Shown here piece after piece: positions 5,429-27,650 of a DNA stretch of 30,482 nt. How positions within the stretch are numbered: position 1 is the first letter of the stretch; each line of letters opens with the position of its first letter. The notes below the pieces were generated by a model that saw nothing but the letters and a program-made list of their open reading frames with translations, was not told the DNA's origin and made no database searches. This stretch comes from Abditibacteriaceae bacterium. Its GTDB lineage: Bacteria; Armatimonadota; Abditibacteriia; Abditibacteriales; Abditibacteriaceae. Position numbers and translations under genes: made by a program. The stretch lies in the NCBI GenBank assembly GCA_031372065.1, contig JANMKN010000375.1, positions 1-30,482 of the forward strand, read 5' to 3'.

Positions 5429-6185
5429 CCGAAAAGACCTTCCGCTTCTAAACCTCACGCCGCTGCACGTTGCGCGCAATTGGAGCAAAGCGGATGTGCA
5501 TTTGGGCGAATATAACGGGAAACAGGTTGTTGTCAAAGACTTGAAGCCGTGCGCTTTGTGGTTTCGCTGGGTCTTTGGGCGCCACGCCATGAAGCGCGAG
5601 TGGCGCGCACTGGAAACGCTGCGCGGTTTAAACGGCGTCCCGGCGCCCGTTGCTTTGGTAGATGCCGATTGCTGTGTGATGGAGTTTTGCGGTGGCACGC
5701 CGATTAAAAATCTGGCGCGCGGCAGCATCCAAGAAAGCACGTTGGGGCAGTTGGAATCGCTGTTATCCGAAATCCATCAGCGCGGTGTAACGCACGGCGA
5801 CTTGCACGGCGGTAATATTTTAGTGGACAATGCGGGCGAGGTTTCGCTGATTGATTGGGCCACGGCTTCGGTTTTTGGCCCGCATCCGCAAGGCCCGAAA
5901 GCCGTTTCATTTGCTAACTGGTGTGCTTTAGATAAGCGCGCCTTTTTGAAAGTGAAACTCTCGCACACGCCGCAAAGCATCACGCCGCGCGAACGCGAGA
6001 TTTTATTAAACGGCCCCTCGGCGCTTTATCGCTTTGTCAAAAACCTGCGCTATGGCCTGCAAAAACTGCGCGGCAAAAACCCATCGCGAGAGTGGATGTA
6101 TGTCAGCGCCGAAATACGCGGAATGCTGGAACAATCGGTGGGCAGCGAGAAAAGCCACACCCCAAACGAAACCACTGACCACTGA
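5367..6185 (+). CDS. Protein-kinase-like phosphotransferase (RIO1/Kdo-WaaP-like family)
   Basis: VVVK lysine, REW..L, catalytic loop HGDLHGGNILV, LIDW; true start uncertain. Confidence 0.8.
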   Translation: MDSQQREDRPSPASCLLPTLSRKDLPLLNLTPLHVARNWSKADVHLGEYNGKQVVVKDLKPCALWFRWVFGRHAMKREWRALETLRGLNGVPAPVALVDADCCVMEFCGGTPIKNLARGSIQESTLGQLESLLSEIHQRGVTHGDLHGGNILVDNAGEVSLIDWATASVFGPHPQGPKAVSFANWCALDKRAFLKVKLSHTPQSITPREREILLNGPSALYRFVKNLRYGLQKLRGKNPSREWMYVSAEIRGMLEQSVGSEKSHTPNETTDH

Positions 6186-6303
6186 CCACTGACCACTGAC
6201 CACTGACCACTGACCACTGACCACTGACCACTGACCACTGACCACTGACCACTGACCACTGACCACTGACCACTGACCACTGACCACTGACCACTGACCA
6301 CTG
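6171..6303 (+). repeat. Perfect heptanucleotide tandem repeat (ACCACTG)19
   Basis: 133 bp of uninterrupted ACCACTG; supplies the kinase stop codon (TGA 6183-6185). Confidence 0.98.
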
Positions 6304-6318
6304 AATCAAGGAGAACCT

Positions 6319-7822: not shown

Positions 7823-7909
7823 TATTCAGTTTTCAGAGTCCGAGCCAGCAGGCGAAGACAAAAGAAGCCCCGCAATCAAAATTTGATTGCGGGGCTTCTT
7901 GTTTTTAGA
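7823..7909. repeat. Structured direct repeat, copy 1 (24-bp core, small hairpin, long hairpin)
   Basis: TATTCAGTTTTCAGAGTCCGAGCC (7823-7846), then the 19-bp perfect inverted repeat AAGAAGCCCCGCAATCAAA/TTTGATTGCGGGGCTTCTT (7862-7900), then GTTTTTAGA. Confidence 0.9.
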
Positions 7910-7937
7910 ACGCTATACTTTGCTGCGAGGTGTGAAA

Positions 7938-8192
7938 ATGACACAAGTTTATGAAGCGATTTATGAAAACGGCGTGTTTCGCCCGATAGATAAAATTATC
8001 TTGGAAGAAGGGCGGCTCGTTCGCTTAGTAGTCGAAAGCGAAGACGACGAGTTTGCGCGTGAAATGGAAGAAGCTGCGCGCGATGCGCTATTCATGCAAG
8101 ACTTGGAAGAGTGTATGAGCGATTTTGCCGCTGTTGATGCCGAAACCGCGCGGCTGATGGCTCAGGATAAGGAATTCGATGCCGAATCTTGA
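7938..8192 (+). CDS. DUF104 (AF2212-like) putative antitoxin
   Basis: EAIYENGVFRP...I.L.EG..V signature; GAGGTG SD; acidic C-terminal tail; overlaps the downstream toxin gene. Confidence 0.85.
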   Translation: MTQVYEAIYENGVFRPIDKIILEEGRLVRLVVESEDDEFAREMEEAARDALFMQDLEECMSDFAAVDAETARLMAQDKEFDAES

Positions 8193-8622
8193 CCCTGAAC
8201 CCACTGAGGACAACGTATCGGCGGATGAATCTACTCAAACAGCAAAACCGAGTGCCAGAATTGTGACGGCTCCTTGGCAATGGCAACTGGTGCGGGCCGA
8301 ACTTGAACCGGTGCGCGGTAGCGAACAAGCAGGAGTGCGTCCGGTTTTGATTGTTTCAGCAGAAGCAACCAATCGCGTTTTGCCGGTTGTGGCGGTGCTG
8401 CCAGTAACTTCACTCAAACCGGGCCGACGCATCTATTCCACCGAAGCGTTTTTGCCGGCCCAGAGCGCTGGACAGCCACAAGACTCAATTGTCATGGCCC
8501 AACAAATTCGCATTCTCGATAAGTCGCGCTTGATTGGCTCTTATGGCTACCTTTCGGATGAAGATATTCGTAACAAGGTGCGCTCTGCTTTGCGCCGCTA
8601 TTTGGATTTGAAAACTTCATGA
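8179..8622 (+). CDS. mazF: PemK/MazF-family endoribonuclease toxin
   Basis: L.PV.GSEQAG.RPVLIVS...N, V.V.P.TS and DS.....QIR..DK.RL signatures. Confidence 0.9.
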   Translation: MPNLDPEPTEDNVSADESTQTAKPSARIVTAPWQWQLVRAELEPVRGSEQAGVRPVLIVSAEATNRVLPVVAVLPVTSLKPGRRIYSTEAFLPAQSAGQPQDSIVMAQQIRILDKSRLIGSYGYLSDEDIRNKVRSALRRYLDLKTS

Positions 8623-8763: not shown

Positions 8764-10131
8764 ATGATCCTCAAACATTGCTCACTATTCATTTTCTGTT
8801 TGATTCAAATACTTTTTGCTACAACAAATGTGCTGGCACAGCCAAGTGCAAAGCGCGTCTTTGACAAAGGCGAAGTAGCAACCTTAATCCAAAATATAGA
8901 GAATGGTGATAATGCCTCAATTCTAAAAAATCAGTATTTTCGTGCGCCTGACTTTAAACCACAATTTCCCTCAAATGAAGGGTTGGGTTTATTGAATCAA
9001 GAGCTAACAAAGGAAAAAGCAGGAACATCGCGCTGGTTTGCGCTGCAATCTGTAAAGGCGTGGGCACTTTCGCAGATTAAAGGAGCCTCATGGACCGATA
9101 TGCTGAAGACTTACGATGAATTATTTTCTGTTGCAGAAATATCGTTAAGCCTTAAGCAAGACGAAAAGATTGTGTCCACAATACAAAAAGCAATCTATGA
9201 TTACACTCTTTTGATTTCTGATACGAGCGGTCTGGCCGTTAATAGGCCTGTGAAGAAATTTGCTTACAGAGCATGGTCGCCTTCGTCGGCATTTGGTCAG
9301 GAAGACCAACCAGTTGTGACCAAGCCGACGCAAGCTCTAACTCCAACTAATGTAACGCTAAAAGCCTTTCAAATATATTTACAGTTGGCGGCGCAAAATA
9401 AAAGTCTTCCTCCCAAGATGACTTGGGGATATATTTTTAGTTCTTCCGGTGGACAACGCGTTATTGAAATGACCAATAAAGCACTCGGACCAGATATGCC
9501 CAAAACCTTCGCGGTCTATGAGGTTGCCGTGGATATTTTTAGTAGTTTCAATCGGCAAAAAGCCATTTCAATTCTAAAAGAACGTGAAAATAGCATTGAT
9601 AAAAGTAAAACGCAACAGGTCAAATGGCTTTATTGGAATTTGGCGCTTCTTGCAGAAAATGATAGTGAACAGCTAAAGTATTTGAAACAGCTTGTGAATT
9701 TGACTGGACAAAAAAGAGCCGAATTAGCTTTTTGGTATCGTTCAGCTAAGGATACAAAGTCCTTTCAGGAAATAATTAATACTCTCTGTAATGCTAACGC
9801 TAATGAAGAAGATATTATAGAATTGGCCGAAGGTTTGTTTCGATGGTTTGAAGATGATCCACATAAAAATCGCGCGGATGCGAACTCCGCTATTGTCCTG
9901 TTACAAAAATATCTGGCTAACAAAAGGAAAAGAGATGTTGATAGTGAGTTAAAAGCTCGTTTGCTGTTAAGCAAATTTCACGTTGCAAACAACAAGCGCG
10001 ACCAAGCAATTGATGTATTAAATGTTGACCATTTAAAAACCTCGCTTGCAAGCGAAGCGAGTAAGATTAGGTTCCAGTTGGCACAAGAGCAACGCCGAAT
10101 CCTGATTGCATTACAAAAGAAAAAGCAATAA
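8764..10131 (+). CDS. Secreted hypothetical protein with a helical/TPR-like C-terminal half; AT-rich, probably acquired
   Basis: 455-aa ORF with a signal peptide ending VLA-Q; visibly more AT-rich than neighbours, with few alternative-frame ORFs; TACAAT 7 nt before the ATG. Confidence 0.7.
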   Translation: MILKHCSLFIFCLIQILFATTNVLAQPSAKRVFDKGEVATLIQNIENGDNASILKNQYFRAPDFKPQFPSNEGLGLLNQELTKEKAGTSRWFALQSVKAWALSQIKGASWTDMLKTYDELFSVAEISLSLKQDEKIVSTIQKAIYDYTLLISDTSGLAVNRPVKKFAYRAWSPSSAFGQEDQPVVTKPTQALTPTNVTLKAFQIYLQLAAQNKSLPPKMTWGYIFSSSGGQRVIEMTNKALGPDMPKTFAVYEVAVDIFSSFNRQKAISILKERENSIDKSKTQQVKWLYWNLALLAENDSEQLKYLKQLVNLTGQKRAELAFWYRSAKDTKSFQEIINTLCNANANEEDIIELAEGLFRWFEDDPHKNRADANSAIVLLQKYLANKRKRDVDSELKARLLLSKFHVANNKRDQAIDVLNVDHLKTSLASEASKIRFQLAQEQRRILIALQKKKQ

Positions 10132-10177: not shown

Positions 10178-10420
10178 AAGCATTATTCCTCCCAAACCAA
10201 GCAAAACTTCTTCATTCCACAGCAAATTCCCTTAAATTTAAGCGTGATTGCTTGAAAACCAAGCAACCTTCCTACTTCGCAACGAAAATTTCCGTAAATT
10301 TAAGCGTCGTCCCTCGAAAAAACGGAATCTTCCTTACAATCGAAGGAAGATTCCGTTTTTTTGAAGAGAAATTCCGTTTTTGGCAAGCAAATTTCCGAAA
10401 ATTAACGGAAATTTGCGTTA
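10178..10420. repeat. Degenerate ~19-22-bp periodic array containing a perfect 19-bp inverted repeat
   Basis: AAGC/AACG-type starts at 10178, 10199, 10220, 10240, 10261, 10281, 10302, 10321, 10343, 10364, 10385 and 10404; inverted repeat AAAAAACGGAATCTTCCTT (10317-10335) / (10343-10361). Confidence 0.65.
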
Positions 10421-10422
10421 GT

Positions 10423-10875
10423 TTAGGGGTTTGGGGCTTCGGGTTTCTTTTTGCGTTTGAATTGTTCGCTGAGGTCGCGTTTTTCGTCGTCGAGGCCGAC
10501 GGCATCTTGCACGCCGTCGTAAACCGCTAAAGAGGCGCCATAAGCCTCAATCAGCGCTAACGAAAAGGTGTCTTCGATTTCGTCGAGCAATCGGCGCACG
10601 GCAATGAGGACCGGCAAAAGCTCCTGAGCCAGCGCAGCGTCCGTTTGCATAGCGGTCAAATCGAAGCTGCCGCGCAAAATTTCAGGATGTTGGCGGGCGA
10701 TTTCAAGACACTTGAGAATAAAAGGCAAGGCCGAGGCGCCAATTTTCGGCAATCTTTGGCGCTCTTGGGGCGACAAATCAACGAGAAACGGCAAAATTTG
10801 ACGGAGGGCTGACACGCCGTCGAGTGCGGCCTGTTTTTGGGCGGCAGTCAATGAAGCGTTAATGCGATTGGGCAT
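10423..10875 (-). CDS. Conserved ~150-aa all-helical hypothetical protein
   Basis: N.I.A.L ... LPFLVDL.P.ER..LPK.G....F....LE.A...P..L...FD ... DT......EAY...L.VY pattern of a widespread uncharacterised family (from memory); has its own promoter. Confidence 0.75.
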   Translation of the reverse strand: MPNRINASLTAAQKQAALDGVSALRQILPFLVDLSPQERQRLPKIGASALPFILKCLEIARQHPEILRGSFDLTAMQTDAALAQELLPVLIAVRRLLDEIEDTFSLALIEAYGASLAVYDGVQDAVGLDDEKRDLSEQFKRKKKPEAPNP

Positions 10876-10910
10876 GCTGTTTCATTCCTAACAATTTAGA
10901 GCTAAGAATA

Positions 10911-10940
10911 ATAATACAGCGTTGGAAATTCACCTGTCAA
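10911..10940 (-). promoter_or_regulatory. Sigma70-type promoter of the 150-aa gene
   Basis: Minus strand TTGACA (10940-10935), 18-nt spacer, TATTAT (10916-10911). Confidence 0.7.
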
Positions 10941-14886: not shown

Positions 14887-14967
14887 GAGCTTTTAGCGAT
14901 TAGCTTTTAGCTACGGCGCTTTGGTAAAAGCTAACCGCTAACTGCTAACCGCTAAAAGCTAATCGCT
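14887..14967. repeat. Inverted heptamer-unit element (TTTTAGC/GCTAACC type)
   Basis: AGCGATTAGCTTTTAGC (14895-14911) pairs exactly with GCTAAAAGCTAATCGCT (14951-14967); contains the dprA stop codon. Confidence 0.8.
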
Positions 14968-16140: not shown

Positions 16141-16303
16141 GGCAGGCGATTTACAAGGCAACGGCAAGGAAATATAAACAAAAGCCGCCCGCCGCGCAAG
16201 TTCGATAATTTTTCTCATAAGCGCGGCGAGCGGCCTAAAAGACCAAATTTTCGCCTGCAAAACCACATTTCCTTGCCTGAAACAAGAAGTTTCAACTGCC
16301 AGT

Positions 16304-16534
16304 TTGGTAGTTTTGCCTGAAAACTTGGTTGTTTCGGCTGCCGACTTGGTTGTCTTGCTTGCGGAGTTGGTTGTTTCGCTTCCCGACTTGGTTGTCTCGC
16401 TTGCGGAGTTGGTTGTCTTGCCTGCCGACTCGGTTGTTTTGCTTCAACCAATGGTTGTCTTGCTTCCCGATTTGGTTGTCTTGCCTCAACCGATGGTTGT
16501 CTCGGTTCCCGCCTTGGTTGTTTCGCTAAAACTC
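16304..16534. repeat. 21-bp tandem array of 11 units: conserved TTGGTTGT core plus variable tail
   Basis: Units start exactly every 21 bp at 16304, 16325 ... 16514. Confidence 0.95.
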
Positions 16535-24649: not shown

Positions 24650-24711
24650 TTTTCCTACTCGCTGACTGTGGAACTGCTACCGGCAAGACCGAATTATTGC
24701 AATCTATCGTC

Positions 24712-24921
24712 AAAGCGATACGGATTATTGCTAAAGCGATACAAATTATCGTCAAAGCGATACGAATTATGACCGAAGCGATAGAAATTATGCCCAAAGC
24801 GATACTCCGGGAAGCCGAAGCGATATGGCGGCAGGTTGCAGCGATAGGACGGGAAGCCAAAGCCATAGAGCGGGGAGTCAAAGCGATACCCGGAATGCCA
24901 ATAGCGACAGCATTTTGCTTT
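24712..24921. repeat. 21-bp tandem array of about 10 units: conserved AAAGCGATA core plus 12-nt variable tail
   Basis: Cores every 21 bp at 24712, 24733, 24754, 24775, 24796, 24817, 24838, 24859, 24880 and 24901. Confidence 0.93.
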
Positions 24922-24934
24922 CTCAACAGGTCTT

Positions 24935-25507
24935 ATGACTAAAAAATTCGACGTTTCGCAAGCGCAGAAATTGGATACAACCGAGCGATTGAAATGGAAT
25001 AACCCACGCGAAATTGTCGCGGCGGCCCATATTCCGGTTGGTTCGCGCGTGGCCGAAATCGGCTGCGGCACGGGCTGGTTTACTTTTGAAATCGAAAAAG
25101 TGGTGCGCCCGCGCGGCATGGTTTACGCCTTAGATATGCAGCCCGCGATGCTGCAAATTTTGCGGGCGCGCCGCGAATGGGAGCGCATTCTCACTTTGCC
25201 GTGCCGCGAGAACGAATTTGAACTCGATAACGGCGAAGTGGACGTGATTTTTCACGCCAACACGCTGCACGAATGCGAAAATCCCGCCGCGCACCTGCAA
25301 GAAGTCGCACGCGTTTCCAAAGATGGCGGGCGTTTGGTTCTCATCGAATGGCACTTGTCCAGCGACGAATCGCAGCCCGGCCCGCCCAATACGCAGCGCA
25401 TCGAACAAAGCGAGGCCGAAAAACTCATCGAATCCGCCGGTTTTAAAGTGCAAAGCCGCAACGATGTTGGGCCGTATCATTATTTGATTCAAGCGACGAA
25501 ACAGTGA
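24935..25507 (+). CDS. Class I SAM-dependent methyltransferase
   Basis: Motif I VAEIGCGTGWF, VYALD, and the V.K.GGRL..IEW post-motif. Confidence 0.9.
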   Translation: MTKKFDVSQAQKLDTTERLKWNNPREIVAAAHIPVGSRVAEIGCGTGWFTFEIEKVVRPRGMVYALDMQPAMLQILRARREWERILTLPCRENEFELDNGEVDVIFHANTLHECENPAAHLQEVARVSKDGGRLVLIEWHLSSDESQPGPPNTQRIEQSEAEKLIESAGFKVQSRNDVGPYHYLIQATKQ

Positions 25508-25582
25508 TCGGTGGGCAGTGTTCAGTGAGCAGAAATATCTCGCTGACCACTGACCGCTGACCACTGACCACTGACCACTGAC
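25502..25582. repeat. Inverted heptamer-unit element (CAGTGNN/CTGACCA type), same family as 6134-6303
   Basis: CAGTGAT CGGTGGG CAGTGTT CAGTGAG ... about five CTGACCA units; ATCGGTGGGCAG is shared with 6134-6145. Confidence 0.85.
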
Positions 25583-27572: not shown

Positions 27573-27650
27573 AGTGCGGAATGTGAAATGCGGAATGTGG
27601 AATTAGAAATTTTTCTTCATTCCGCACTTCGCACTCCCCATTCCGCAATT
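27573..27650. repeat. Inverted heptamer-unit element (AATGCGG/ATTCCGC type)
   Basis: AGTGCGG AATGTGA AATGCGG AATGTGG AATT ... ATTCCGC ACTTCGC ACTCCCC ATTCCGC AATT. Confidence 0.8.

Follow-up and report, generated by a model that had tools for sequence, protein, structure and literature searches.

Our analysis identifies a family of small orphan proteins, here termed F3, whose genes are paired with arrays of short palindromic DNA units. In the window, the whole stretch of 30,482 nucleotides from an Abditibacteriaceae bacterium that was analysed, a 150-residue F3 gene runs directly into such an array. Arrays of this kind are real, non-coding, gene-linked and widespread, and as a protein-array system they are undescribed in the literature searched. 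The sequence patterns give about even chances to the idea that the array, as double-stranded DNA, is the binding site of the F3 protein encoded beside it and that gene and array travel together as a cassette. The features concerned are the following:

10911..10940, minus strand: promoter-like site of the sigma-70 type (TTGACA-18-TATTAT), consensus match 11/12
10875-10423, minus strand: F3 orphan gene, 150 aa, based on the ORF list, a profile and a structure model
10178..10422, no strand: array 1, non-coding, 12 palindromic cores with 20-21 bp spacing
10387..10416, no strand: terminator-like hairpin with an 11-bp stem, array 1 units 1 and 2
10317..10361, no strand: perfect 19-bp inverted repeat with a 7-nt loop, formed by the oppositely oriented units 4 and 5 of array 1
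16279..16527, no strand: array 2, gene-less, 21-bp, autocorrelation at lag 21 of 0.65
24704..24915, no strand: array 3, gene-less, 21-bp, autocorrelation at lag 21 of 0.59

The near-consensus promoter that a preliminary description of this DNA had placed ahead of a small minus-strand gene is indeed present, with 14 bp between the stop codon of the upstream menaquinone-biosynthesis gene (PF02621) and the site at 10940-10911. On its own, the match is weak, since the region contains two promoter-like sites where 1.1 are expected; among the paralogues, four of the six scored have a site reaching at least 9/12. The site 3' of the menaquinone gene has a different content in every relative. An AT-rich gene for a 455-aa TPR-like protein (8764-10131, plus strand), which is convergent with array 1, is absent from the syntenic stretches of the relatives examined, and a gene pair at 7887-8622 (plus strand), which we take to resemble a PemK/MazF-type toxin-antitoxin module, was not found there either.

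The preliminary description had raised the question of whether the F3 protein might resolve to a characterised metabolic family. Pfam, NCBIfam, PADLOC and PHROGs contain no match to the window protein, its Atlas matches are unnamed clusters only, and the best hit in a PDB sequence search has an E value of 0.05, while a profile search recovers 3,907 clusters of relatives (50% level). The proposed structure check yielded an all-helical model without strands (pLDDT 96.5), with predicted helices at residues 11-27, 36-41, 47-62, 73-124 and 129-139, the longest of which comprises 52 residues, and a basic, Pro-rich tail after them, whereas fold searches with this model gave no match, returning generic helical rows only (best Z 5.5), a result that does not imply a novel fold. 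Conservation is seen in a basic motif at positions 38-46 and, among other residues, at D79, D102, T103, Y119 and R138. F3 is scarce in the host phylum (5/301 genomes), and its gene was not found in three genomes of the same genus (completeness 79-97%). Viral and phage records contain no F3 protein and plasmid records one, and a metagenome scan returned a single locus. The present genome harbours seven F3 paralogues, whose monophyly is rejected (p-AU 1e-8; four long branches), and the gene-array modules have been acquired repeatedly and independently. Frameshifted copies of the gene occur at L135, L138, L141 and G310:C90, with the arrays retained at three of these loci.

Array 1 begins directly at the F3 stop codon, with cores running from 10418 to 10191. 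Its autocorrelation amounts to 0.49 at lag 21, where shuffled sequences reach 0.265 +/- 0.029, and to 0.57 at lag 62. Each unit comprises a 5-bp arm, a 6-7-bp spacer, the inverted arm and a 4-bp linker, and the cores are spaced by 21 bp in 7/11 cases and by 20 bp in 4/11. Of the roughly 12 degenerate, partly self-complementary units of 19-22 bp described previously, the number thus stands, with 12 palindromic cores, whereas the size narrows to 20-21 bp. Similarly, the 19-bp inverted repeat is as perfect as had been claimed, but it links units 4 and 5 of the 12 rather than lying mid-array, and it forms the inner part of a wider inverted repeat (10314-10335 / 10343-10364; 22 nt at 95%). The hairpin at 10387..10416 exists because unit 1 is inverted relative to unit 2. 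A rule deriving the arrays from terminators was dropped, as long stems are not restricted to array starts (23 vs 25 of 48). We found no copies of array 1 elsewhere in this genome and no variants of it in three DNA runs from one study.

The linkage between gene and array, proposed earlier as a module, is borne out both within this genome and beyond it. All seven F3 paralogues possess a 21-bp array, six of them downstream at the stop codon and one upstream of its promoter-like site. A search of GTDB yielded 53 loci with 57 reading-frame hits, 56 of which had enough downstream DNA; 40 of these 56 gene ends are periodic (score >=0.1), as opposed to 0/55 upstream regions and 8/336 other gene ends, with the qualification that these counts are not independent, since one subfamily dominates and three frameshifted loci were counted more than once, and that the use of a single protein query biases the sample towards one F3 subfamily. 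The 16 gene ends below the threshold include some fragments of frameshifted genes. With loci spanning Acidobacteriota, Cyanobacteriota, Chloroflexota, Verrucomicrobiota, Pseudomonadota, Bacteroidota and others, the pairing is seen in at least six bacterial phyla, and the earlier statement that homologues in cyanobacteria and Bacteroidota are often trailed by 21-bp arrays proved correct. Cultured carriers include Phormidesmis and Solitalea strains. Among six further F3 homologues of the host phylum, four passed the periodicity test. The downstream regions of the largest subfamily (L089-L141) additionally show a weaker 7-nt sub-period, and the 21-mer of this subfamily may therefore derive from three heptamers. 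Separate 7-bp tandem arrays lie in the window at 6171-6304, 14888-14967, 25502-25582 and 27575-27603; long arrays of this type number 20 genome-wide, with none in 312 kb of the relative G002.

The array sequence tracks the lineage of the protein rather than the host. Across the 36 loci with a clean array, a set that excluded the window's own array, protein identity correlates with array similarity (rho 0.67). Between genomes, array similarity amounts to 0.74 at 47% protein identity, in a pair from different genera, and to 0.66 at 54%, compared to 0.17-0.45 for paralogue pairs within a genome (null mean 0.29). This correlation represents co-inheritance, which is itself expected from simple linkage too.

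While the module thus holds, the view of a single gene and its array overlooked that this genome has at least nine partner families including F3; in the eight other orphan families, the arrays lie upstream. The genome contains about 260-310 arrays of 21 bp: we obtained 314 calls at period 21, of which a stricter score leaves 258 and some of which are 41/42 arrays or coding repeats, whereas none of the other periods between 10 and 40 exceeds 47 calls. Another 27 calls fall at period 41 and 37 at period 42, with none at 36-40 or 43-47. The 259 arrays that were sorted fall into 154 sequence families; 45 of them touch a known partner gene, another 44 are close to the end of a contig, and gene-linked members occur in 21 of the 55 multi-copy families. 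Among 20 representatives of the partner proteins, one exceeds the Pfam cut-off (fn3), and profiles of the nine families reveal no homology to F3. A model of F8, which gave no match in fold searches, has helix lengths (16, 54, short) that match residues 47-139 of F3. In the Fn3-bearing family F4, proteins of 207-220 aa are associated with period 21 (6/6) and proteins of 306-313 aa with period 41/42 (5/5), although one 198-aa member has an array mainly of period 42 and an internal duplication in the long forms was looked for and not demonstrated. This relationship between length and period is not general, as F2 (~320 aa) as well as F5 and F7 (~235 aa) have period 21.

As further observations on these loci, some 60 genes (e.g. 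L067-L086) from at least eight orphan helical families have 21- or 41/42-bp arrays upstream; some of the families carry a C-terminal Fn3-like domain, and many have a terminal Pro-rich tail. The locus L067:13-414 and its C247 paralogue share a 290-bp leader, unlike other F1 loci; it contains a promoter-like site as well as an ATG-initiated frame that leads through the array towards the F1 gene. Matches to the four-helix-bundle family PF05635 number five in this genome.

The arrays of the F3 paralogues follow the same grammar as array 1, with a 5-bp arm, a 7-bp spacer, the inverted arm and a 4-bp linker, the arm differing from paralogue to paralogue. In the 189 clean arrays of this genome, conservation peaks at a period of 10.5 (2.07) and not at 3 (0.94), and strongly palindromic unit consensuses are found in 20/189 cases, where about 2 are expected. 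Entire units are flipped in 23/172 arrays versus 6/565 controls. Among genes of the upstream type, 14/37 have a promoter-like site between array and start codon, compared to 5% in shuffles. The dyads, the two-turn pitch, the unit flips, the occurrence of arrays both before and after genes and their frequent location outside the predicted transcript fit a two-fold protein that binds in phase to double-stranded DNA.

On the reading that F3 binds its own array, a rod-like helical protein would occupy the array, probably at one dimer for every two turns of the helix, its two-fold symmetry allowing it to read the inverted 5-bp half-sites. The 52-residue helix, which at textbook rises measures about 78 angstrom compared to 71 for 21 bp of DNA, could set the 21-bp period, such that a phased filament would form along a single face of the double helix. 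Every paralogue would recognise its own half-site specifically, and arrays without a gene would stem from loss of the gene or from ectopic copying. Candidate roles of such a filament are self-repression, the bridging of distant arrays or merely its own persistence. Several points count against binding: F3 shows no match to a known DNA-binding motif or fold, the net charge of the family averages -2, the relative G004 has 3 arrays in 40 kb although an F3 gene was not found there, and a minority of the arrays in this genome, the 45 of 259 mentioned above, touch a known partner gene.

The two gene-less arrays announced by the preliminary description are indeed present, and arrays 1, 2 and 3 are mutually unrelated in sequence. 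Array 2, which lies between genes that we take to be dprA-like and PQQ-repeat-like, belongs to a family with three members in this genome, none of them gene-linked, and the same gene adjacency in the relative G003 lacks an array. Array 3 shares its family with an array beside an F9 gene and lies between a fabH-like and a methyltransferase-like gene, which are 285 bp apart here and 8 bp apart in G001 and G002, two genomes of the same genus; the suggested check for empty sites thus identifies it as an insertion. The notion that gene-less arrays are solo derivatives of this gene's array finds no support for arrays 2 and 3, which represent other families; gene-less arrays of the cognate motif are nevertheless present in genomes that carry the gene. 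Gene-less copies of the adjacent array were detected for the paralogues on C69 and C239 and in cyanobacterial genomes, not for array 1. The gene-less array C232:5042-5374 keeps a short junction that by eye resembles the stop end of the C69 paralogue (C69:7650-7909), and it looks as if it were a remnant left after gene loss.

Insertions of this kind also bear on a different proposal, namely that the F3 protein makes or spreads the arrays by stabilising 21-nt slipped or looped intermediates or by promoting their copying to new sites, which we regard as unlikely. On this view, which keeps the logic of RAYT/REP but not the RAYT fold, the arrays would be what the protein makes more than where it acts. 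In its favour, this genome has about 5 arrays per 100 kb, whereas 312 kb of G002 and 40 kb of G005 contain none and 181 kb of G003 yield 3 weak calls, one of them beside its F1 gene; several of the stretches sampled in the relatives, G004 included among those compared, were chosen near partner genes. Among 40 relatives, F4 and F5 genes are present in 0/40 each and F1 genes in 5/40. The empty site of array 3 is equally consistent with spreading, as is the excess of cognate-motif matches away from the gene over controls in the cyanobacterial carriers G309 (115 vs 11) and G307 (33 vs 8), counts that include overlapping matches within arrays. Moreover, in duplicated modules whose genes are 84-88% alike, the arrays have changed in concert and faster than the genes, and the conservation of Y119, D79, D102 and R138 could be read in the same way. 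However, F3 lacks a nuclease or recombinase motif or fold, arrays share neither termini nor target duplications, and common flanks were seen in just 13/207 same-family pairs. In addition, motif matches are few in the carriers G308 (2 vs 3) and G310 (5 vs 0), and array 1 itself has no second copy.

The position of array 1 immediately after a stop codon raises the prospect that it acts as RNA, in which case read-through would generate a chain of hairpins with 5-bp stems and 7-nt loops bound by the protein, in the manner of type III toxin-antitoxin or guide-array systems. Transcribed, the array folds well (z -5.5). In the arrays, Watson-Crick pairs are slightly in surplus (948 vs 906), and G-T pairs somewhat outnumber A-C pairs on the sense strand (133 vs 106). 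Nevertheless, there is no clear excess of compensatory pairing (74 vs 67.7 and 168 vs 155.7), entire units flip, many arrays precede a promoter-like site, including the upstream array of one F3 paralogue, and the Rfam hits are unspecific hairpins that score far under the gathering thresholds. The units vary at few positions, with changes common to neighbours, unlike spacers, and an RNA function appears quite improbable.

It is also conceivable that a host factor makes or keeps the arrays and that the gene merely resides on the same horizontally moved islet, without any interaction between the two. Most arrays here lack a partner gene, F3 gene neighbours are not conserved (largest neighbour cluster, 6 loci), and labels are common to kin, all of which agrees with passive linkage. 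Yet the array directly follows the stop codon in phylum after phylum, nine unrelated-looking orphan families display the association, the period follows protein length in F4, and array sequence goes with the protein; we consider this explanation very unlikely. Finally, the possibility that the arrays encode seven-residue repeat peptides partnering the protein, which revives the earlier equation of 21 bp with seven codons, can be given hardly any credence, because ATG-started frames in some arrays, a slight surplus of open frames (2.2 vs 1.7 in controls) and a best-frame synonymous fraction of 0.473 vs 0.442 (p 0.008; coding repeats, 0.62) are set against the 20-bp spacings in array 1, single-base indels outnumbering three-base ones by 252 to 27 (ragged ends included), conservation without period 3 and the existence of 41-bp arrays.

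The arrays as such fall into a class that has already been described. Constant-size repeats of 20-21 nt form species-specific, mostly non-coding families of differing sequence in bacteria, and Subirana and Messeguer (2021; PMC8161180), as far as the accessible part of their paper extends, note the correspondence to two helix turns and propose a protein that forms polymers along the DNA, with no partner protein identified there. The arrays analysed here share the constant period of 20-21 nt and, with 154 sequence families among 259 arrays, the diversity of that class, and they are likewise non-coding, with 9/189 located inside long ORFs. Unlike in the accessible part of PMC8161180, they come with a linked protein family that their sequence tracks, their units are built as dyads, and a class of period 41/42 exists beside that of period 21.

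Among characterised systems, the closest parallels include plasmid centromeres, as described in the portion of PMC5016525 available to us, such as omega/parS of pSM19035, ParG/parH, ParR/parC, TubR/tubC and the motor-less type IV systems. In both cases, a small protein gene lies beside a row of direct and inverted sites, with a phased nucleoprotein filament, predicted here, and possible self-repression. In contrast to partition systems, there is no conserved NTPase neighbour, and none beside the window gene; the loci are chromosomal, with many paralogues recognising, on this reading, different sites in one genome. For F3, the fold searches gave generic helical rows and no match to a ribbon-helix-helix or helix-turn-helix fold.

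REP/REPIN-RAYT systems likewise combine a gene with adjacent palindromic repeats and with gene-less copies scattered through intergenic DNA. The gene-less copies of the adjacent repeat noted above for C69, C239 and the cyanobacterial genomes, not for array 1, resemble this arrangement, whereas the repeats here are tandem, helix-phased and divided into dozens of sequence families per genome. A RAYT-like enzyme, to which the analogy drawn in the preliminary description points, is not supported. A Y1 HUH transposase was rejected on the grounds of the strand-free helical model, the lack of a conserved His and the absence of a Y1_Tnp match, both for the window protein and among the 25 listed of 63 weakly matching Pfam families (126 members); nor is Y1_Tnp expanded in this genome (7 vs 3-7).

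In type III toxin-antitoxin systems, the antitoxin array lies upstream of a ToxN/CptN/TenpN endoribonuclease gene. Such an identity was rejected, given the downstream array, the lack of a match in Pfam, NCBIfam and PADLOC and the absence of an Rfam hit at gathering score. CRISPR, TIGR and VIPR arrays, as far as they are covered by the accessible text of a survey of periodic intergenic sequences from 2026, have periods of 60-79, 18 and 5 nt with variable guides, and no pairing with period 21 appears in that text (10.64898/2026.10.21.760802). A repeat array beside a protein gene is common to all of these systems and the present one, which differs from the guide arrays in its period of 21 and its lack of RNA covariation; a guide array was also rejected because units vary little, changes are shared between neighbours and no effector was matched. 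A published protein-array pairing of this kind was not found in the openly accessible literature searched.

Collectively, the repeats alone are known and their pairing with a protein is the part that appears new. The published 20-21-nt repeats are without explanation, and the locus supplies candidates for the postulated polymerising protein, with pairs of cognate and non-cognate arrays available within one genome. It is tempting, if doubtful, to extend the binding hypothesis to an entire class of cassettes, in which many rod-shaped helical families, each with its own palindrome and a two-turn pitch set by a helix of 50 residues, would spread by horizontal transfer, seed hundreds of gene-less arrays and thereby give rise to the 21-bp satellites as well as to a library of orthogonal filaments. 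If binding is the whole story, the F3 module would work like a motor-less centromere. If true, the proposed interaction would represent a DNA-binding architecture without a solved relative, offer a mechanism by which bacterial satellites are constrained in length, and provide sets of orthogonal protein-DNA pairs.
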